Source: Oscillospiraceae bacterium (lineage in GTDB: Bacteria; Bacillota; Clostridia; Oscillospirales; CAG-272). Taken from it: a stretch of DNA of 64,000 nucleotides. The notes under the pieces are model-generated. The model was not told the DNA's origin, searched no databases, and was given only the letters and a program-made list of their open reading frames with translations. Both the position numbers and the translations under genes were made by a program. How positions within the stretch are numbered: position 1 is the first letter of the stretch; each line of letters opens with the position of its first letter. This document shows positions 22,898-57,032 of the stretch, in pieces. The stretch lies in the NCBI GenBank assembly GCA_015065135.1, contig SVQY01000003.1, forward strand, positions 12,667 through 76,666. Direction: 5' to 3'.

Positions 22898-22926
22898 TTG
22901 ATTATGAGAGAGTATTATGCTACAAT
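22898..22926 (+). promoter_or_regulatory. putative promoter of the two-gene RyR/HD/SLOG-like operon
   Basis: TTGATT (22898-22903), 17 nt, TACAAT (22921-22926) with TGc extended -10. RBS AAGAGGAG lies 6 nt before ATG 22965. Confidence 0.55.
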
Positions 22927-22964
22927 GAAATCAGTTTCACAATAAATATTAAGAGGAGCCTCAT

Positions 22965-25205
22965 ATGTATCTGATATTGTCTCTTTTGTGCATGATCCTG
23001 CTGTGCGGCATATTGATCGGCTTTCTGGTCGCCTTCTGGCGTCGGGATCGCAGTGGCAAGATCGCGTTTGTCCGCGATTTTAAAAAAGGCAGCTGCGCCA
23101 TCATTTATTTGGCAGCGATCCCGATCTACTGCATTGGTCATTTGCACGCGGGTCAGAAATTTTTGGATGCGTTTTTTCTCGCGATCAATAAGGTCGCGAA
23201 TCTGGTAGCGCTGCGTTACGATAGCTCTACCGTGCGTGGCCTTATGGAGCAGGAGCGGCTTTTTGCTGTGGTGCTGTATTTCTGCTTCTTTATGGTGGCA
23301 GCCAATGCGGTAATGTTCACCGTTTCCTTCCTGCATCAAAGGATCTGGGCGCTTTGGCAGCGCCGCTTGTGGAGCAAGGAGCGCGGCGAAAAGCTGCTGA
23401 TCATTGGCAATAACGACGGTAGCTGCCGGATCTATGCCTCCGAGCGCCGGCGGATGAAGGCGATCCTGGCACCGCTCACCAAAGAGGAGCAGAGTGATCT
23501 GTTTATGAAGGGCATCCGTTTTCTGACGGCCGGAAAGAAGCAGAACGTGTGTCTGCAGCTTCTGGATCAGTGCCTGGACCCGCAGCAGAACAGCTCCTGC
23601 ATCATTGTGATCAATACCGAGGATGATGAAGAGAATCTGGCCCTTGGCTATCGGATCGTAAAGCATACCGAAAATGCGATAAAAAGCCGCCGTCCGGAGG
23701 AGGTCGCAGAGCTGCTTGCTCGCGTGCGCGTGTATGCCTTCGGTCATCCGGATCACGAGGAGCTTTATCACGAGCTGGAAAAGGAATCCAAGGGCATTGT
23801 GCGCCACATCAACAAGTATCGCCGTATCGCGATGGACTTTGTGGAGCAATATCCGCTCACGCAATTTATGACCGAGAAGCAGCTGGACACCGAGAACTTT
23901 GTAGTCCGCGACGGTGTTGGCATCAATATGCTGATGATCGGCTTTGGTAAGACCAACCGCCAGATCTTTATGACATCGCTTGCCAATAATCAGTTTTTGA
24001 GGATGGCGAATGGCGAGCGCGTGCTGCAGCAGGTCAACTATCACATTTTTGACAAGGAGCGGCCGGAGAACAACAAAAATCTCAATCACAGCTATGCGCG
24101 GTTCAAAAACGAGCTCGGCGATATCATCAAGGCAGAGGCCGCGCTCCCGAAGGAGCAGCAGCGCTATCTGCCGTTCCCTGAAATGCCTGCTTTGGAGCAC
24201 TCCCATCCGCTGGACATCAACGATCCGGATTTTTATAAAACGGTACGCGGGATCCTGACCGCCGAAGGCGCCTACAACTATATCGTGATCGCCTTTGGCA
24301 CCGATATGGAGAACGTGGATATGGCCAACAAGCTGATCGAAAAGAAGGACGAATGGGGAGCGCATCAGACCAGATTGTTCGTAAAAGTACGTAACGGTAG
24401 CAGATTTTTCCCCATTTTCAAGAGAAACGATTGTTTTATGATCGGCGACGAGGCGCGGGTGGTCTATAGCATCGGTCATATTGATGACAATGAGCTGATC
24501 AAAATGGCGATGAAGCGCAACCGCACCTATGCCATTGAAAAGAACCGTGTCAAGGCTACCAAGGCTCAGGCCGCAGGAGAGCCGATGTCTCCGCTTACAA
24601 AGGAAGAAGTCGCGGAGATCTGTGCGCTGGCGGATTACGAATGGTATAATGAAAAAACGCCCTTTGAAAGAGAATCCAACCTGTATGCGTGCCTCAGTCT
24701 GCGCTCCAAGCTACATATGATGGGATTGGATGCGGTGCCCGGAGACATTCAAACGAGTGGTGCGCTGCAGGATAATGATGCCTATTGGAGCGTGTATGCC
24801 GCAGGCGATCTCCCGGCTCTCTTGCCCGGTCTGACGGTGGACGGCAAGGCTGTTGTGGATCCTTATGTGGCACATCCCGAATCCCGGCGCACCACGATGG
24901 CGATCCAGGAGCATTATCGTTGGAACGCATTTATGATCAGTAAGGGCTTTGTTCCTGCCGACAAGAATACCATCCTGACCGCACCGAAAAACGGAAAGGA
25001 TTATCATATCCGCCGTCACGGCAATCTGACCACCTTTGAGGGCTTGGTGGATTTCCGCCGCCTGCTGGCTGCACGGGACGGAGATGACGAGATGAACCAC
25101 GACGTGATCAAATATGACTATCAACTGCTGGACGATGCCTATTGGCTGCTGAGCAAGCACGGATTTGCAGTGGTAAGGAGGGAAAAGAATGCAGTCACTG
25201 ACTGA
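22965..25205 (+). CDS. membrane protein: 3 N-terminal TM helices + two Rossmann-like (TrkA_N/KTN-like) segments + C-terminal RyR-like domain; function unknown
   Basis: Hydrophobic helices at aa 1-25, 43-60 and 99-122. KLLIIGNNDGS and NMLMIGFGKTNRQI beta-strand/Gly-loop starts. C-terminus FERESNLYACLSLRSKLHMMGL then AIQEHYRWNAFMISKGF...HGNLTTFEGL, resembling bacterial RyR (PF02026-type) modules. 746 aa. Confidence 0.55.
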   Translation: MYLILSLLCMILLCGILIGFLVAFWRRDRSGKIAFVRDFKKGSCAIIYLAAIPIYCIGHLHAGQKFLDAFFLAINKVANLVALRYDSSTVRGLMEQERLFAVVLYFCFFMVAANAVMFTVSFLHQRIWALWQRRLWSKERGEKLLIIGNNDGSCRIYASERRRMKAILAPLTKEEQSDLFMKGIRFLTAGKKQNVCLQLLDQCLDPQQNSSCIIVINTEDDEENLALGYRIVKHTENAIKSRRPEEVAELLARVRVYAFGHPDHEELYHELEKESKGIVRHINKYRRIAMDFVEQYPLTQFMTEKQLDTENFVVRDGVGINMLMIGFGKTNRQIFMTSLANNQFLRMANGERVLQQVNYHIFDKERPENNKNLNHSYARFKNELGDIIKAEAALPKEQQRYLPFPEMPALEHSHPLDINDPDFYKTVRGILTAEGAYNYIVIAFGTDMENVDMANKLIEKKDEWGAHQTRLFVKVRNGSRFFPIFKRNDCFMIGDEARVVYSIGHIDDNELIKMAMKRNRTYAIEKNRVKATKAQAAGEPMSPLTKEEVAEICALADYEWYNEKTPFERESNLYACLSLRSKLHMMGLDAVPGDIQTSGALQDNDAYWSVYAAGDLPALLPGLTVDGKAVVDPYVAHPESRRTTMAIQEHYRWNAFMISKGFVPADKNTILTAPKNGKDYHIRRHGNLTTFEGLVDFRRLLAARDGDDEMNHDVIKYDYQLLDDAYWLLSKHGFAVVRREKNAVTD

Positions 25206-27477
25206 GCTTTGTAAGCGCTTTTTCGTTGATTTTGCTTCGAAAAAAACGGACGGGACCGATATGGCTTGCTTCCGCCGTGCCGTGGAGCAATTCTGCGAAA
25301 GCGGCAAAAAGGAGGATGCCTTTTCCGTTTATTTTTGCTACAACGAGGTCTTTCACCTGCTGGGCGAGGGGTATGAAAATACCAAAAAGCTGCTGGAGCT
25401 GCTGGCGGATCACGAATACCACGCAGGCGAGCTGCTGAAAAAGCATCGGGATCATTATTCCCACTCTGCGTATGTGTTCGTGCTCGGCCTTGCGATCTAT
25501 GCGGGGGATGCGACCTATCGTCGCGCTTTTTGTCGCCATTATGGCTTTGACGAGGCCGACAAGGAGGAGTTCCTGTATCTGTGGGGCATGACCGCGCTTT
25601 TCCACGACATTGGCTATCCGTTTCAGCTGGCCTACGAGCAGGTCCAATCTTATACCGAGAACGTGTGGGGCCCCAAGCATCCGGATTCCCCCTATGTGAC
25701 CTTTGGCAATCTGACCGCCTTCTGGCGTATCGACCCGGAAAACGCTATGTATATCCGATCGGCTCTGCACACCGATGCTAAGTTTGAAAGCATCAACGAT
25801 CTGCTGGCATACGGTATGGATCGCAAACTGGGCTACTCGCAGGAGCTGATGCGCCCCTTGCTGGAAAAGCGCGTCAAGCAGCAGACCGAGTATATGGATC
25901 ACGGCTATTTCAGCGCGGTTCTGTTGGCCAAGCAGATGTTTGAAAAGAGCTACCGGGATTTTACCAAAAATATTTTGGATGTGCTGACGGCGATCCTGCT
26001 GCACAACAGTCTGAACAAATACGACCTGCCAAAACAGCAATTTCCCAACGCGCATCCGATCGATCTGGAGGAGCATCCGTTGGCGCATCTGCTGATGCTG
26101 TGCGATGAGCTGCAGTGCTGGGATCGCGAGGCCTTCGGTATGGTCAGTAAACGGGACCTGCAGCCGTGGAAGGCAGCCTTTGAGATCAAGGATAACGCTA
26201 TCGAGGCAAGGTTCTGGTTTGAGCGGTATAAGCTGGATGAGAGAGATGAAGCAGATGCACGCAGCGTGACCTATATCAAAGACGGTAAGCTGGCCGAGGA
26301 CCTTGCCTCCTGGCTTTCCCGCTCACCGAGGATCATTACCGATACCGCCGAGCAGAAGAAGGATAAGAAGGTCAACAGCTTTGCTTCCTCGGATAAATTC
26401 ATCAATCTTTGCGATTTTGCCAAGGCGATCCACAAGAGCTATACCGAGAGCTGTCAGCAGGAGAAGATCCAACATCTGGATGAGGCCTTTGGCGAGCTTT
26501 CGCTGGAGATGAAGATCTCCAACATCGAGCAGGCAAAATCCTATGCGCAAAAGCTGGAGCTGATCAATTGCTTTTATAGCGACAAGGATCTGGACTATCC
26601 CATCGTATATGATTTTGGGGAAAACAGGGACGAGGAAACGCTGAAAAAGCGAGACGATGCAGGATTTTTGTGCCGTGAGGAGCACGTGCGCTGGGTGCGC
26701 GAAAAGCTGGCGATGGGCTGGCGTTATGGCCGCTCCTATATTACCCGCAACGAGGACGGCACGCTTTTCTATGACAGAAAAAAACGCAACGAGCTGCGCG
26801 AGCATATGGATATCGTGCCCTATGAGCAGCTGAGCGAGGAGGAACGGCTGAAGGATGTGGCCGTTGTGCGCCATATGGTAGAGGTGCTGCGTGAACAGGG
26901 AAATATCCGCATTTATCGATACCGTTATGGGCGTAAGCCGAATCTGGAGATCGCCGGCGTCGGCCACCGCAATATCCATACGGACCTGGAACGGATCAAG
27001 GAGCAGGTGAAAAGGATCCTGACAGAATATCAAAAGAATTACCGTGTCATCGTGCGTACCTGCTATGCGGCAGGCGCGGATCAGTTGATCGCCGAATGCG
27101 CCAATGAGCTTGGCATTACGACCAAGGCGGTGCTGCCGATGGAATACGAGGAGTATATTGAAGCGGTGCACAAGGATGCAGAGAAGGTAGGGTATCGTTT
27201 TGACGACAAAGATGAGCTGCGTATGAGACACCTGCTGGCGCAGACTGCCGTTTGCAAGACGGTGGAGGATGCACGTCACACCTGGATGGAGGCCGGCAAA
27301 TATGTGATCGGAAAATGCGATAAGCTGATCGCGATCTGGGATGGATTGGAGACCAAGCTCTATAGCAGCGACGGCGACCCCATCAACCGCGGTGGCACCT
27401 ATCATTGCATTCATATGGCAAGACAACGCGGCCTTGAGGATGGCAAGGATATCCACATCATTTCTTGTGACAGATAA
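25189..27477 (+). CDS. multidomain protein: HD-type phosphohydrolase-like N-domain + RyR domain + YpsA/SLOG-like C-domain; function unknown
   Basis: HD pattern: HYSHSAYV...LFHDIGYPF...MDHGYFSA...LLHNSL...LLMLCDELQCWDR. RyR: EEHVRWVREKLAMGWRYG....HMDIVPYEQLSEEERLKD. C-terminus: AGVGHRNI...YAAGADQLIAECA...VLP...IAIWDG....GGT, like DUF1273/YpsA SLOG Rossmannoids. AAGGAGG lies 8 nt before the ATG, inside the end of gene A (17-nt overlap). 762 aa. Confidence 0.55.
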   Translation: MQSLTELCKRFFVDFASKKTDGTDMACFRRAVEQFCESGKKEDAFSVYFCYNEVFHLLGEGYENTKKLLELLADHEYHAGELLKKHRDHYSHSAYVFVLGLAIYAGDATYRRAFCRHYGFDEADKEEFLYLWGMTALFHDIGYPFQLAYEQVQSYTENVWGPKHPDSPYVTFGNLTAFWRIDPENAMYIRSALHTDAKFESINDLLAYGMDRKLGYSQELMRPLLEKRVKQQTEYMDHGYFSAVLLAKQMFEKSYRDFTKNILDVLTAILLHNSLNKYDLPKQQFPNAHPIDLEEHPLAHLLMLCDELQCWDREAFGMVSKRDLQPWKAAFEIKDNAIEARFWFERYKLDERDEADARSVTYIKDGKLAEDLASWLSRSPRIITDTAEQKKDKKVNSFASSDKFINLCDFAKAIHKSYTESCQQEKIQHLDEAFGELSLEMKISNIEQAKSYAQKLELINCFYSDKDLDYPIVYDFGENRDEETLKKRDDAGFLCREEHVRWVREKLAMGWRYGRSYITRNEDGTLFYDRKKRNELREHMDIVPYEQLSEEERLKDVAVVRHMVEVLREQGNIRIYRYRYGRKPNLEIAGVGHRNIHTDLERIKEQVKRILTEYQKNYRVIVRTCYAAGADQLIAECANELGITTKAVLPMEYEEYIEAVHKDAEKVGYRFDDKDELRMRHLLAQTAVCKTVEDARHTWMEAGKYVIGKCDKLIAIWDGLETKLYSSDGDPINRGGTYHCIHMARQRGLEDGKDIHIISCDR

Positions 27478-27485
27478 ACCCAAAA

Positions 27486-27518
27486 GCAGCCGCCGGCAAT
27501 CACGCCGGCGGCTGCTTT
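27486..27518 (+). terminator. intrinsic terminator of the two-gene operon
   Basis: 12-bp GC-rich stem GCAGCCGCCGGC-aatcac-GCCGGCGGCTGC followed by TTT. Confidence 0.7.
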
Positions 27519-27568
27519 GGTGGAGGGTGTGGGGCGGCGGACACCGTCCATCACCTATTCACTACGCA

Positions 27569-27594
27569 AAAAGGCACCCGTTAGGGTGCCTTTT
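27569..27594 (-). terminator. intrinsic terminator downstream of tRNA-Ser (hairpin is symmetric, could act both ways)
   Basis: AAAAGGCACCC-gtta-GGGTGCCTTTT. Confidence 0.7.
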
Positions 27595-27696: not shown

Positions 27697-27785
27697 TGGC
27701 GGAGGGTGTGGGATTCGAACCCACGTGGGGTTGCCCCCAAACGGTTTTCAAGACCGCCTCGTTATGACCACTTCGATAACCCTCC
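27697..27785 (-). tRNA. tRNA-Ser (anticodon UGA), encoded CCA
   Basis: Minus strand reads GGAGGGTTATCGAAGTGGTC...GGTCTTGAAAACC (loop CT-TGA-AA)...long variable arm TTGGGGGCAACCCCACG...GGGTTCGAATCCCACACCCTCCGCCA. 89 nt, class II cloverleaf. Confidence 0.9.
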
Positions 27786-27849: not shown

Positions 27850-29451
27850 TCAGCTTTCTTCGGATTCGGCGGTAGTCTTTGCCACATCGGTAGGAGCGTT
27901 TCCGTTCCGGATCTCTGCCTTGACGGCATCAAAGGTGTCCAGGATCTCTTGAGTGGGTTTGGGGGTTACCAGACTGATCACAATTACAAAGAGCAGGGAT
28001 ACGATGAATGCGGGCAGCAGCTCATAGATGTTCCAGATGCCGCCGAGCGGACGGATGGCATACTTCCAAACAAAGACCACAATGCCGCCGGACAGCATGC
28101 CGGCGAGCGCGCCCCATTTGTTGGTGCGCTTCCAGAACAGTGCGCAAAGCACCAGCGGACCAAAGGTGGCGCCGAAGCCGGCCCACGCAAAGGAAACGAT
28201 GCGGAACACAGAGCTATTGGGGTCCCAAGCGAAGAATACGGCAATGATTGCGATCACAAGCACGGTGCCGCGGGCAACCCACATTTGTGCCTTGTTGGAC
28301 ATATTCTTCCACGCAAAGCGCTTCACAAGGTTCTCGGAAACAGAGGAGGATGCAGCGAGCAGCTGCGAGTCGGCCGTGGACATAATAGAGGCCAGAATAC
28401 CGGCGATGATCATACCGGCAATAATGGCGGCAAAGGTGTCCAGAGAGCCAATGGCATCTGCCATATAAACAATGATGCGCTCGGGGTCAAAGCCTTCCTG
28501 CAGGATCATACCGTTGTTGCTGACAAAGGAGAAACCGATCACACCGATCAGAATGGCGATCGCCATAGAGAAGACGACCCATACGGTTGCTACACGGCGA
28601 GATACCTTCAGTTTTCCGCTATCCTCAATGGCCATAAAGCGTAGCAGGATATGGGGCATACCGAAGTAGCCGAGACCCCACGCAAGGGTAGAAACGATGG
28701 GTAAAAAGCCGAAGCTGCCGTCTGTACCGGTGAGGCTGAAATATTGCTTGAAATTGGTAAAGCCCTGCATGCTGCTGATGTTGTTGGCAATGTTCTGCGT
28801 GCCGCCGGCGCTCTCTACGCCGAAGCAGATGATCACAAACAGTGCAAAGGTCATGACCACAGATTGGATCAGGTCGGTGGTGGAAGCAGCAAGGAAGCCA
28901 CCCAGTATCGTGTAGGCCACCAGCACGATGGCACCGATGATCATAGCAGTGTGATAATTGACACCAAAGATCGATTCGAACAGCTTACCTACGGCAGAGA
29001 AGCCGGAGGCGGTGTAGGGAACGAAGAAGACGACGATGATCACGGCGGCGATGGCGGTCAGCATACCAGCCTTGTCACCGAAGCGGTCCGAGAAAAAGTC
29101 GGGAATGGTGTTCGATTTGGTGCGTGCCGAGTAATGGCGGATGCGCTTGGCGACGATCAACCAGTTGAGGTAAGTGCCTATAGCCAAGCCGATTGCAGTC
29201 CATACTGCTTCAGCAAAGCCTGTGGTGGCGCCTACAAAGGCGGTGGTCAGAGCAAGGCCCGGCAGACCCATCAAAAGCCAGGAGGACATATCCGATGCTT
29301 CGGCACTCATGGCGGTCACGTAAGGACCGAGCTTTCTGCCACCGAGATAGAAGTCATCGGTGCTTTTGTTTCTGCGGGAGCATTTGATGCCGACCCATAT
29401 GATGTAAGCCATATAGGCGATAATTGCTACCCAAATCATGGACAATTTCAT
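27850..29451 (-). CDS. putP: sodium:proline symporter (SSS family)
   Basis: DFYLGGRKLGP..TAMSAEASDMSSWLLMGLPG N-terminal signature of PutP. About 13 TM segments, 533 aa. Promoter TTGACT-17-TATAAT upstream on the minus strand. Confidence 0.85.
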   Translation of the reverse strand: MKLSMIWVAIIAYMAYIIWVGIKCSRRNKSTDDFYLGGRKLGPYVTAMSAEASDMSSWLLMGLPGLALTTAFVGATTGFAEAVWTAIGLAIGTYLNWLIVAKRIRHYSARTKSNTIPDFFSDRFGDKAGMLTAIAAVIIVVFFVPYTASGFSAVGKLFESIFGVNYHTAMIIGAIVLVAYTILGGFLAASTTDLIQSVVMTFALFVIICFGVESAGGTQNIANNISSMQGFTNFKQYFSLTGTDGSFGFLPIVSTLAWGLGYFGMPHILLRFMAIEDSGKLKVSRRVATVWVVFSMAIAILIGVIGFSFVSNNGMILQEGFDPERIIVYMADAIGSLDTFAAIIAGMIIAGILASIMSTADSQLLAASSSVSENLVKRFAWKNMSNKAQMWVARGTVLVIAIIAVFFAWDPNSSVFRIVSFAWAGFGATFGPLVLCALFWKRTNKWGALAGMLSGGIVVFVWKYAIRPLGGIWNIYELLPAFIVSLLFVIVISLVTPKPTQEILDTFDAVKAEIRNGNAPTDVAKTTAESEES

Positions 29452-54557: not shown

Positions 54558-57032
54558 TTATATGAGCAGCATATCCTGCTCGGTGAGGCGCTCGCCGTTC
54601 CAGAGCAGGGTCTTGACCTCGTATTTGCCGAAGGTAAGGGAGGCGGCTTTGTTGCAGAGGGTAACGGTGCAGCTCTTGTCTTCGCGGCTGTTATTCAGCA
54701 GGCGAAGGATGAAATTTTTGCTACCGTATTGCTTTTTTATGGTTACAAGCACCACGTTGCGGTCGGAAATATCCAGGGAGAAGGGTGCTTGAGGCTTATT
54801 TGCACCGGGCAGCCCCGCCTCGGCAGGGAAGACGTTGCAGGCGTAAGGAGGCGTGTTGAATTCCGTCGCCAGCCGCTCCAATGCCGCCACGGGTGCGGCG
54901 GTCAGACGGAAGGCGAAATTCCGCTCTCCCATATCGGCTTTTTTGACGAACTTGTCGGTCGGGATGATGGGTCTGTCCAGAATGGGATGGCCGCAGTAGG
55001 TAATACCGCGCAGCAGCGACATGGAAAGCACGCCGTCCTTGAAGATAGAACCGTAGGTGCCGCGGTTCAGCAGCGCCAGGGCGGTGTCCCCATCCTCGGT
55101 CAGTGCCACAAAGCGCTGCGCCACGTTTTCTCGCCCGTCAAGAAAGAGGGACTCGGTGCCGAAGGCGGTCTGTCCCAAACATCCCTTTGCCTCAGTAGGC
55201 AATGCCAGGCGGAGCATACGGTTGGCATCATTCATAAACACGTCCACCTTCACGTCTACGTCAAAGGAGTGCTTGTAGATGTCGTACTCCACGCGCAGTT
55301 TGGTGTTCTCGCACGAGAAAAATGCCTCGGCGGCGGTGTAGATGGGGCCATCCTCGATGATCTGAAAGGATTTCATGCCCGCAAAGGGGCCGTTCGGCTC
55401 TGCCATTAGGGTGAATGGAACAGGTTCGGTGCCGATGGCCCTTTCCTGCTCCTTGGACATGGCCCACGGGTCGGGATTATCCTTGTAGAAAACAGGCAAA
55501 AACAGACCCCGTTTACCGAGATATGGCTTTTTTGCGGCATATTCCTTGCCGTCGATGCGGTAGGAGCGCATCAGTCCCGTTTTACTGTCGATCTCCACGT
55601 GCTTTTGCACCTTGCGACCCTCAACGGTCACGGTGCTGTCCACCACGATGTCGTCGTTGACACGCGATATGGCAGGCTCGGTGGGGGCGTGATCCGCATA
55701 CAGGGAAAAACGGGTCACGTCCATGGGTGCGAGAGGCGCACGGAAGATAAATCGCTTGCGCCAGTCCAGATTAAGGCAGCTCTCCTCCTTGATCTGCTGC
55801 AGGGGCAGCTCCTGCCCCTTGGCGTCAAACAGCCGCAGACGGGAGTGGATATCCTCCCTCCAGTTTTGATCCGCCATCATCATCTCGCAGATCACCTCGG
55901 TCTCCAGCTCGTAGGGCTGGGGATTGTAGACGAGGATGGGATATTCTCCTTCCTTGGCGCGAGGCTCTGCGGCGCAAAGCGCAAAATACGCTCTGGCGCG
56001 CAGGCGGTTGAGGATCAGCAGGGCATGATCGGCATACTGCAGACCGTTCTGCTCGCCTGCGCGAATGCAGGTGCCGGGCAGCACGTCGTGAAATTCCATA
56101 TTCAAAAGGTCAGTGGTCGCCTCATCCAGCTCCTGCTCGGGATATTCCATGAGGCCGCGCAGAGAGGCCATGGAGCAGAGCTTTTCTACCATGTAGAGGT
56201 TGTTCTCCACCTCTGCGTGCTTTTGCTTGACCTGTGCCATGGAGGTGTAGCAGCCGGGCTGCACCAGTCGCAGCGCCTTGTTATGCACCGCCTTGGGATC
56301 CAGCTTGGCAAAAAACTGCTCGGGGGTGGAGTGGATGATGGTGAACTCATCTGCCAGCTCCTTTTTCAGTGCCTCGATGTCGGCAAGATCCCGACGGGAG
56401 GGACCGCCGCCGTGGTTGCCCACGCCCCACAGCACGAAAATGGTATCCTCGGGGCGGTTTTGGATGCGGTGCTTGATATCCTTTGCAGCGGTGCCCAGAT
56501 GTGTGAGATAGGTGCTACGTACGCCTACCTTCACGCGGCTGCCGTCTACGCCCTCCCACCAGAATTGGCTGGACGGAATGGGCTCGGAGCCGGGGCGGGT
56601 GATGATGTAGCTGTCCTGTCCGCATTTGCTCAGGATCTGAGGCAGACCGGAGGAGTGACCGAAGGAGTCAAAGTTGATGGCGGTGGTTGGCTTTACGCCA
56701 AAGTTTTCTTCAAAATAGCGGTGCCCCATCAGGATCTGGCGTACCATGCTCTCGCCCGAGGGCATGTTGCAGTCGGGCTGGAGATACCAGCCGCCCATAA
56801 TGTGCCACTTGCCCTCTCGTACCAGCTTTTTGATGCGTGTGAACAGGGCGGGGGCATATTCCGCAATATATTTATAAAGGGTGACCTCATTGTGGCAGAA
56901 GATGTAGTCAAACTCCTCTGCAAGGTCGACGGCGGAGCGGAAGGTGGAAAGTGCCGCTGCGGCACCCTCCTCCCATTCCCATTGCCAGATGGGGTCGATA
57001 TGCGCGTTACAGATCAGATGGACTTCTTTCAC
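54558..57032 (-). CDS. alpha-mannosidase (glycoside hydrolase family 38), second paralogue
   Basis: VHLICNAHIDPIWQWEWEEG...TFRSAV, DSFGH, MEFHDVLPG motifs. GTG 57032 lies 8 nt after AAAGGAG. Promoter TTGCAA-17-TACAAT upstream. Confidence 0.85.
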   Translation of the reverse strand: MKEVHLICNAHIDPIWQWEWEEGAAAALSTFRSAVDLAEEFDYIFCHNEVTLYKYIAEYAPALFTRIKKLVREGKWHIMGGWYLQPDCNMPSGESMVRQILMGHRYFEENFGVKPTTAINFDSFGHSSGLPQILSKCGQDSYIITRPGSEPIPSSQFWWEGVDGSRVKVGVRSTYLTHLGTAAKDIKHRIQNRPEDTIFVLWGVGNHGGGPSRRDLADIEALKKELADEFTIIHSTPEQFFAKLDPKAVHNKALRLVQPGCYTSMAQVKQKHAEVENNLYMVEKLCSMASLRGLMEYPEQELDEATTDLLNMEFHDVLPGTCIRAGEQNGLQYADHALLILNRLRARAYFALCAAEPRAKEGEYPILVYNPQPYELETEVICEMMMADQNWREDIHSRLRLFDAKGQELPLQQIKEESCLNLDWRKRFIFRAPLAPMDVTRFSLYADHAPTEPAISRVNDDIVVDSTVTVEGRKVQKHVEIDSKTGLMRSYRIDGKEYAAKKPYLGKRGLFLPVFYKDNPDPWAMSKEQERAIGTEPVPFTLMAEPNGPFAGMKSFQIIEDGPIYTAAEAFFSCENTKLRVEYDIYKHSFDVDVKVDVFMNDANRMLRLALPTEAKGCLGQTAFGTESLFLDGRENVAQRFVALTEDGDTALALLNRGTYGSIFKDGVLSMSLLRGITYCGHPILDRPIIPTDKFVKKADMGERNFAFRLTAAPVAALERLATEFNTPPYACNVFPAEAGLPGANKPQAPFSLDISDRNVVLVTIKKQYGSKNFILRLLNNSREDKSCTVTLCNKAASLTFGKYEVKTLLWNGERLTEQDMLLI

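Follow-up and report, generated by a model that had tools for sequence, protein, structure and literature searches.

The stretch of DNA analysed here, 64,000 nucleotides (nt) of contig SVQY01000003.1 from an Oscillospiraceae bacterium (hereafter the window), contains two long open reading frames (ORFs), designated gene A and gene B, which are considered below as candidate orphan effectors of a Thoeris-like conflict system. All coordinates are those of the window, and features lie on the plus strand unless stated otherwise. Gene A (22965..25205; 746 amino acids (aa)) was predicted to encode a membrane protein with tandem RCK-like domains, and gene B (25189..27477; 762 aa) a soluble HD-like/RyR/SLOG protein. 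By ORF calling, the two genes share a strand and overlap by 17 nt. The Shine-Dalgarno sequence of gene B, AAGGAGG (25175..25181), is located within the 3' end of gene A; 7 nt separate it from the ATG at 25189, and the stop codon of gene A follows at 25203-25205. The Shine-Dalgarno sequence of gene A, AAGAGGAG (22951..22958), was read from the sequence and ends 6 nt before the ATG at 22965. In public annotation, JGI and ENA contigs encoding an identical gene B protein have gene calls that match the coordinates of both genes. An earlier note on this DNA, made from its letters alone, had described the two same-strand ORFs, their lengths, their overlap and the AAGGAGG of gene B inside gene A, and all of this was borne out. 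As read from the sequence, the two genes are predicted to be co-transcribed and translationally coupled.

The note had also given the pair its own promoter and a GC-rich terminator. A promoter-like TTGATT-17-TACAAT with a TG before the -10 hexamer was present at 22898..22926, 39 nt 5' of the gene A start, with 9/12 matches. Promoter-like sites numbered 7 in the window against 6.4 expected in shuffles, leaving this candidate backed by position alone. Downstream of gene B, a terminator-like hairpin (27483..27518) comprised a 15-bp stem around the GC core GCAGCCGCCGGC and a 6-nt loop, followed by UUUGG. It was very stable (dG -35.7 kcal/mol, z -5.45; 0/200 shuffles equally stable), but its U-tract was weak and it was missing from the terminator-scan list. 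The flanks were as previously placed, with two Chromate_transp genes (domain annotation) upstream of gene A on the minus strand and, on the other side, a tRNA-Ser(tga) (27697..27785, minus strand) whose 3' end faces the pair.

Direct scans of both proteins with Pfam, NCBIfam and PADLOC returned only a sub-threshold RyR match in gene B, and single-sequence searches of the Protein Data Bank (PDB) were uninformative for either gene. Homologues were abundant for gene B, with more than 2130 clusters, and relatives were found in at least 473 species genomes. An AlphaFold2 model built with 50 homologues had a predicted local distance difference test score (pLDDT) of 85 and a predicted template-modelling score (pTM) of 0.82, and hydropathy analysis revealed no hydrophobic segment. 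The gene B motifs quoted in the earlier note were all present and showed complete or almost complete conservation in 50 to 74 homologues.

The RyR motif seen in gene B proved sound. It falls in residues 396-575 (26374..26913), a helical region plus RyR domain, where the Pfam match spans residues 495-569 (nt 26671-26895). Pfam RyR (PF02026) scored 23.3 bits against the window protein (E 7.6e-5), just below the gathering threshold of 27.4, and matched 50/50 homologues (best E 3.9e-12); the source database also assigns PF02026 to homologues. When a gene B family profile was compared with the PDB, the repeats of RyR1/2/3 were matched at E 6e-15 and the bacterial RyR structures 3nrt/6uag at E 1e-7. 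At the level of sequence, the prediction that gene B carries a RyR domain is firm.

The earlier statement that bacterial RyR domains have no assigned function is outdated. Phage proteins with this domain bind 2'cADPR and 3'cADPR, the cyclic ADP-ribose (cADPR) signals made by TIR proteins in Thoeris, with nanomolar affinity through H75, W78, H100 and D117 (PMC13232231, a preprint of May 2026). One of them, a glycosidase, cleaves the signals by means of an H75/D117 dyad, and others act as sponges; 6/8 RyR homologues bound the signals and only DyoEdafos RyDEP cleaved them, despite high conservation (PMC13232231). That study covers viral proteins only (PMC13232231). In gene B, the corresponding ligand positions H499 and W502 were kept in 74/74 family members, and H539 and D556 in 71/74. 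The spacings H499-W502 (3) and H539-D556 (17) are those of RyDEP H75-W78 and H100-D117. RyDEP and gene B thus share a Pfam family and the four ligand or catalytic positions at the same 3 + 17 spacings. They differ in that RyDEP is a phage anti-defence protein, whereas gene B is cellular, has three domains and bears a 15-residue insertion between W502 and H539. By this comparison, the role of the gene B RyR domain is probably host-side sensing or processing.

For the C-terminal residues 580-762 (26926..27474), a SLOG-fold Rossmannoid with GHR, GADQ, WDG and GGT motifs, a YpsA/SLOG likeness had been proposed and was upheld by Foldseek. The best PDB match was YpsA 2nx2 (E 1.9e-5, template-modelling score 0.66), followed by ShosA, DprA, LOG, the Moco carrier and the ThsA SLOG domain. 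The GHR, GxD and GGT elements were conserved, and Pfam YpsA, YAcAr and DprA matched the region marginally in a few homologues. On the modelled structure, the assignment of a SLOG fold is firm. When this domain was searched alone, it also found hypothetical proteins that Agrobacterium plasmids encode next to a 'caspase family protein' (H5-H8, e.g. NZ_CP039902.1 61292-61732) and a 'DUF4326 and YspA-like SLOG' protein of Myxococcus phage Mx1 (H3, 55971-56279).

The N-terminal residues 1-320 (25189..26148) were modelled as all-alpha and contain RDHYSHS, FHDIGYP, DH, HN and CDELQxWDR. Nine residues of these motifs (H89, H92, H139, D140, D237, H238, H272, N273 and D306) were kept in 74/74 family members, down to 32% identity, and this set includes all the candidate metal ligands. 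The proposed HD pattern is therefore present and invariant, but the profile evidence for an HD assignment was weak. Pfam HD gave E 0.21 for the window protein and matched 9/50 homologues weakly (best 6.5e-4), and the Cas3-HD models of PADLOC matched 4/50, again weakly. By hhalign, RDHYSHSvYV...LFHDIGYP of gene B was aligned with RTRLTHSMEV...LMHDIGNP of E. coli Dgt, corresponding to motifs I and II (RxxHSxxV, HDIGxP), at E 0.002-0.004 and a probability of 8-14%. Alignment with the HD domain of E. coli Cas3 was insignificant, though the H...HDIG motifs were aligned, and a profile built over residues 20-345 with 11 diverse sequences had no match among PDB sequences. The domain likely belongs to the HD superfamily.

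The family of this N-terminal domain comprised 910 clusters at 50% identity (E<=1e-3). Its core architecture was [HD-like]-[RyR]: RyR was found in 98/111 long representatives and SLOG in 23/111, about a fifth. Distant HD-like/RyR members of 545-585 aa matched Pfam RyR at E 1e-11 to 1e-18. Among 149 representatives, the HD-like domain was never seen fused to TIR or to gene A. In a set of proteins of 930-980 aa (P0443, P0453, P0455, P0463, P0470), the HD-like domain follows an extra N-terminal region of about 300 residues; those scanned had no Pfam match, and none of this type matched the RyR or SLOG profile.

The homologues of gene A fell into 563 clusters that all lacked a Pfam domain, and the AlphaFold2 model of gene A was scored at pLDDT 92 and pTM 0.88. 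Residues 1-138 (22965..23378) contain three hydrophobic helices and amphipathic helices, with hydropathy peaks near residues 14, 52 and 111 and helices in the model. Residues 139-505 (23379..24479) form two Rossmann-type, RCK/TrkA-like domains with the Gly loops LLIIGNNDGS and MLMIGFGKTN. The three hydrophobic helices and both Gly-loop strings had been noted before and were confirmed by hydropathy and translation. The suggested TrkA-like Rossmann assignment was supported by fold: Foldseek against the PDB matched GsuK 4gx0/4gx5 (2.8e-4), the TrkA ring 4j9v/4g65 (3.9e-4), MthK and KtrA, all at probability 1.00. Pfam TrkA_N and Ion_trans_2 had no match in gene A or its 53 homologues, and its translation contained no TVGYG-type K+ selectivity-filter string. 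As modelled, gene A is a membrane protein of three transmembrane (TM) helices and tandem RCK-type Rossmann domains.

The remaining part, residues 506-746 (24480..25202), is a helical region in which EHYRW...RRHGNL (residues 649-687) resembles RyR at the motif level only. Residues E649, H650, R652, W653, R683 and H685 were invariant. The RyR-like C-terminus claimed for gene A was not recovered in any of the searches: Pfam RyR matched 0/53 homologues, the gene A profile had no match among PDB sequences, Foldseek found no RyR match in the PDB or BFVD (best viral-structure E 0.12), and hhalign of the C-terminus against the gene B RyR region was insignificant (probability 1%). The motif did find a collinear counterpart in another protein family. 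This family, labelled c12 (570-630 aa), shares homology with the TM and Rossmann parts of gene A (hhalign 98.5%), and its C-terminus is a genuine RyR domain (Pfam RyR 5/5, best 28.9 bits) with which the EHxRW...RRH motif of gene A is collinear. Because c12, a homologue of gene A, ends in a true RyR domain, the sequences indicate that a TM-RCK-RyR architecture exists in the wider gene A family, and the last module of gene A appears to have diverged beyond detection. Genes of family c12 adjoined gene B homologues in 5 loci (L018 12380-14215, L026 12250-14118, L061 1961-3811, L064 9659-11374, L076 8064-9950).

The neighbourhoods of gene B were surveyed in the best 80 of at least 473 species-level loci, retrieved through two peptide patterns; many of the contigs were short. 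Neighbours were counted by means of a home-made longest-ORF caller and BLAST clustering. The hosts were mostly Christensenellales and other Clostridia, Erysipelotrichales/Coproplasma and Anaeroplasmataceae. Single metagenome-assembled genomes (MAGs) with gene B were labelled Eggerthellaceae, Ornithospirochaeta and Phocaeicola, and such labels may include binning errors. One MAG, CAMWLA01, encodes two diverged gene B paralogues (L006, L072), which are 53% and 34% identical to the protein of the window.

A gene A homologue was the commonest neighbour of gene B (30/80 loci, against 16 for the next family) and was near it in 17/47 loci flanked by 5 kb or more on each side (about 36%). The two genes were directly adjacent on one strand in 18 homologous loci, nine per gene order, with gaps of -1 to +89 nt. 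The window genome is a further case of the A-then-B order with its 17-nt overlap, giving 19 adjacent loci in all. At the other loci with both genes, they were divergent, convergent or a few kb apart. Gene A was absent from 50/80 gene B loci, and in metagenome loci found with gene A, gene B was present in 2/23. The neighbourhoods of gene B were otherwise almost unshared across species. Genes A and B are linked strongly, not obligately; of the expectation that they would be conserved neighbours, the frequent pairing stood, and the frequent occurrence of either gene alone did not fit it.

A linkage that the earlier note had not foreseen emerged from the same loci. A hidden Markov model (HMM) for TIR domains was built from neighbour proteins, and its members matched Pfam TIR_2 and ThsB_TIR with E-values down to 4e-19. 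TIR-domain ORFs were found within 10 kb of gene B in 24/80 loci; in about 15 of these the distance was no more than 300 bp, and the TIR ORF often shared the strand of gene B, 8-60 nt downstream of it. Two-gene arrangements of [HD-RyR(-SLOG)] + TIR were observed in L009, L012, L067, L070, L081 and L083 and on a phage-labelled scaffold (L084), the one HD-RyR + TIR scaffold in the phage and plasmid collections, where the rest were SLOG-level matches. Gene A homologues without gene B also had TIR neighbours. In loci with the A-then-B order, the TIR gene commonly came after gene B. Behind it lay genes for a large helical protein and a ParA/MinD-like P-loop protein, usually with one more gene for a large protein. 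By family label, the order was A-B-TIR-c9-c2(-c4) in L031, L041 and L064 (with a c12 gene inserted) and A-B-TIR-c7-c2 in L097.

The phage-labelled scaffold is MT836912.1, an unverified 'Bacteriophage sp.' sequence of 8.3 kb from human faeces. It encodes, in order, a 511-aa protein whose C-terminal part has a hydrophobic stretch, a 774-aa HD-RyR protein without SLOG, a 703-aa TIR protein and a last ORF which, by eye, looks like a phage head-morphogenesis protein. The scaffold may represent defence cargo at the end of a prophage.

The genes downstream of gene B in such loci belong to a four-gene cassette that was seen beside gene B and/or gene A in about 14-16/80 loci (including L007, L023, L031, L041, L044, L046, L053, L059, L064, L069 and L097). 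It encodes the TIR protein, a helical protein of 700-900 aa, a ParA/MinD-like P-loop protein of ~320 aa (KGGSGRTS) and a protein of ~800-990 aa. The three non-TIR families had no Pfam match at the curated threshold, and their sole PADLOC match was weak (PDC-M28B, E 2e-4, to the P-loop protein). The cassette may be an undescribed multi-gene system. In L022 (14584-21472), L052, L058 and L098, a radical-SAM/SPASM-type enzyme (PADLOC pVip, E 4e-12) replaces the TIR gene, and a first module swapped in this way is typical of conflict systems. A further family, c11 (~590 aa), was found beside gene B in 5 loci (L016 7998-9785, L023 6355-8136, L036 12337-14112, L051 12265-14163, L080 3773-5413). Its N-terminus is SLOG-like, resembling the C-terminus of gene B, and its multi-TM C-terminus matches DUF4231, which we take to be a SLATT-related family.

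Because the RyR ligand residues are kept, a SLOG domain is present and TIR genes adjoin relatives, gene B can be read in a Thoeris-like context. We propose, at what we judge to be about an even chance, that A and B are orphan effectors of a conflict system driven by a signal that TIR proteins derive from ADP-ribose (ADPR), with no signal-making gene at this locus. In gene B, RyR and SLOG modules that would bind the ligand are fused to a putative metal-dependent enzyme of the HD-like type, either a phosphohydrolase or a nuclease. The HD domain would be switched on once the RyR domain, the SLOG domain or both had bound a cADPR-type signal, and the activated protein would degrade nucleotides or nucleic acid, so that phage growth would stop. 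Gene A, with its RCK ring of the nucleotide-binding type, would serve as a ligand-gated membrane effector, or as the membrane anchor and partner of gene B. The copy in the window would be an orphan pair lacking the TIR cassette that is seen downstream of gene B elsewhere. The earlier note had envisaged a ligand-sensing protein with a phosphohydrolase output and a membrane partner. Of this, the two ligand-type domains and the membrane nature of gene A were upheld; the HD evidence was weak, and the partnership is not obligate.

Several observations weigh against this proposal. At the locus itself, no TIR-like ORF was detected by the TIR HMM anywhere in the 64-kb window, the immediate neighbours of the pair are housekeeping-type genes, and the GC content of the pair equals that of its flanks, with no anomaly. 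PADLOC, which has no Thoeris match here, gave nothing below E 0.003 for gene A, gene B or 50 homologues. For the proteins, no single test was significant for the HD assignment, and the RyR-like region of gene A was unconfirmed by Pfam, PDB profile, Foldseek and hhalign. That gene B binds such a ligand is something we infer, because the glycosidase residues of RyDEP are also kept in non-catalytic sponges and in animal RyRs. Among relatives, 32/80 gene B loci had neither gene A nor TIR nor recurrent partners within 10 kb, and gene B was present in only 2 of about 16 adequately flanked metagenome loci of gene A. The neighbour counts, moreover, rest on the simple ORF caller and the best 80 loci described above.

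The conserved RyR residues also admit a different role, in which gene B is a host- or element-encoded off-switch. Its RyR domain would cleave cADPR-type signals to ADPR, its HD domain would hydrolyse the pyrophosphate or phosphoester product and its SLOG domain would bind or process a nucleotide, while gene A would act separately, as an effector or a regulator. The equivalents of the RyDEP glycosidase dyad H75/D117 are kept in gene B (74/74 and 71/74). The [HD-like]-[RyR] core, with RyR in 98/111 and SLOG in 23/111 representatives, fits a two-step catabolic enzyme, many gene B homologues stand alone, and an HD-RyR gene is found on a scaffold deposited as phage. However, gene B takes a ThsA-like place beside TIR genes, and an enzyme that destroys the signal is not expected in an operon with the signal maker. 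While 6/8 tested RyR homologues bound the signals, none but DyoEdafos RyDEP cleaved them (PMC13232231), and no host-encoded enzyme that degrades a Thoeris signal is described in the Thoeris literature surveyed. An off-switch is, on balance, unlikely.

The linkage data bear on a second alternative, that A and B are independent single-gene effectors of the RyR or RCK type which accumulate in the same islands and overlap here without a two-component mechanism. The 50/80 gene B loci without gene A, and the majority of gene A loci without gene B, are in keeping with independence, as are the varied order and orientation, with some pairs 2-5 kb apart or on opposite strands. Set against this, gene A is by far the commonest neighbour of gene B (30 vs 16) though both families are rare. 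The 19 same-strand adjacent loci, which include both gene orders and have gaps ranging from -17 to +89 nt, bear the usual signature of functional coupling, and in the window the genes overlap, with the ribosome-binding site of gene B inside gene A. We regard independence as quite unlikely.

The chromosomal slot of the pair was compared among close relatives. On the tRNA side, the next gene encodes a sodium/proline-type symporter (SSF, 27850-29451), and SSF homologues of 81-86% identity in Ruminococcaceae/Oscillospiraceae-type MAGs keep the order AraC - Mem_trans - SecG - SSF - tRNA-Ser(tga). The same tRNA-Ser follows SSF in five relatives (L110-L114). Past the tRNA-Ser, the content differed in every relative (L110-L115), and none carried A-B. 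The slot held TrkH+TrkA in L110, followed by a LarA-TauE flank as in the window, and STAS/SpoIIE genes in L114 and L115. In L111, a tyrosine integrase with DNA methylases was next to the tRNA-Ser, and in L112 a tyrosine integrase was next to the tRNA-Ser, with a PemK toxin and other element genes. In the window, a 16-nt near-copy (15/16) of the tRNA-Ser 3' end (27697-27712) is present at 27518..27533, directly behind the hairpin of gene B and 163 nt from the tRNA. Two copies of this tRNA 3' fragment occur in the window against 0.11 expected by chance, and no third copy bracketing the pair as an island was found there. The near-copy looks like the kind of scar that integrases leave. Because relatives carry differing slot contents and an att-like tRNA fragment lies beside gene B, the slot is a hypervariable tRNA-Ser integration hotspot, occupied here by the A-B pair and the chromate-transporter genes. 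The location in a variable island, a check set beforehand, was thus supported, with integrase elements in some relatives. Between the att-like copy and the tRNA-Ser, a second hairpin, GGCACCC-GTTA-GGGTGCC (27573-27590), is bordered by A-runs on one flank and by T-runs on the opposite one. It resembles a terminator active in both directions, which on the minus strand would stop the SSF/tRNA-Ser transcript.

HD-domain enzymes such as PgpH hydrolyse cyclic di-AMP (c-di-AMP), and RCK domains bind it. This background, together with the GsuK/TrkA/MthK fold of gene A, the TrkH+TrkA genes in the identical slot of a related genome (L110), the transporters next to the pair and the unremarkable GC content, would suit housekeeping ion or nucleotide homeostasis with no tie to phage conflict, with gene A as an RCK-gated cation channel or transporter subunit and gene B as an HD phosphodiesterase for a physiological second messenger such as c-di-AMP or a metabolite derived from NAD; it is made quite unlikely by the hypervariable slot with integrase elements in sister strains, the near absence of shared synteny across species, the patchy spread over several phyla with paralogues within one MAG, the strong TIR enrichment near gene B and the lack of a K+ selectivity filter in gene A.

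Returning to the proposal of orphan Thoeris-like effectors, the pair was compared with described systems. Among the closest known counterparts of gene B is ThsA of type I Thoeris, a SIR2-SLOG protein with the TIR partner ThsB. Like gene B, ThsA is soluble, with an N-terminal enzyme domain and a C-terminal SLOG domain. The ThsA SLOG structures 7uxs, 8btp and 6lhx were among the Foldseek matches of gene B, and both proteins are often encoded directly beside a TIR gene. Gene B differs from ThsA in having an HD-like domain instead of SIR2, an extra RyR domain between enzyme and SLOG, and a SLOG domain nearest to YpsA. In ThsA, the SLOG domain serves as the receptor for 3'cADPR, according to the summary in a systematic Thoeris preprint (10.64898/2025.12.03.692087). 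Compared with Thoeris as a locus, the window has no TIR gene in its 64 kb and no PADLOC Thoeris match, whereas TIR genes are present in 24/80 homologous loci.

YpsA (DUF1273), DprA and ShosA (8zva) share their fold with residues 580-762 of gene B at an identity of only 12-16%. Unlike gene B, they are single-domain or differently fused proteins of cell division, transformation and the Shosta system. Gene A shares with GsuK, MthK, TrkA and KtrA the presence of N-terminal TM helices followed by tandem RCK-type Rossmann domains, which is the GsuK layout. It is unlike RCK channels in lacking a TVGYG filter and Pfam TrkA_N/Ion_trans_2 matches, in its extra C-terminus of 240 residues, and in being linked to gene B and TIR rather than to TrkH/KtrB.

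Among the 29 predicted Thoeris effector types listed in the systematic preprint are SLATT, "ion channel", "SLOG and 4TM" and hydrolases (10.64898/2025.12.03.692087). The SLATT (type VII), 'ion channel' (type X) and 'SLOG and 4TM' effectors share with the present loci the concept of a TIR gene combined with a membrane or SLOG effector. No RyR, HD-RyR or HD-RyR-SLOG effector is mentioned in the text or the examined tables of the preprint (10.64898/2025.12.03.692087). NCBIfam had no match for gene A or gene B, and a literature search for bacterial RyR combined with SLOG or TIR found nothing apart from the RyDEP preprint (PMC13232231). The view that the combination matches no named system therefore agrees with PADLOC, NCBIfam and the literature; as for a signal-making partner at the locus, nothing in the window supplies one. 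Because the defining TIR partner is absent from the locus, A-B was not assigned to any named system. The pair would instead belong with the TIR/ADPR-signal conflict systems as an undescribed variant.

Thoeris-type TIR signalling is widespread, and many of its effector classes are still without assignment. The locus points to large host-encoded families in which RyR is joined either to an HD-like enzyme or to an RCK membrane protein, beside TIR genes. The families of A and B are concentrated in uncultured gut Clostridia, whose defence repertoires are poorly known. If confirmed, they would extend the known classes of effectors or regulators, would offer a ready way to test which ligands are sensed by cellular RyR domains, and would bear on the long-debated link between cADPR and the ryanodine receptor. 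A broader conjecture, which we consider doubtful, is that in bacteria cellular RyR domains are receptors for TIR-made signals of the cADPR family, with HD-RyR(-SLOG) proteins (about 900 clusters at 50% identity) and TM-RCK-RyR(-like) proteins, namely gene A with its shorter paralogues, as two large and so far unrecognised Thoeris-type effector classes. If this were true, the membrane class would represent a prokaryotic channel-like protein under the control of a cADPR-type messenger through an RyR module. It would then parallel, in bacteria, the control of animal ryanodine receptors by cADPR, and might be the evolutionary origin of that control.

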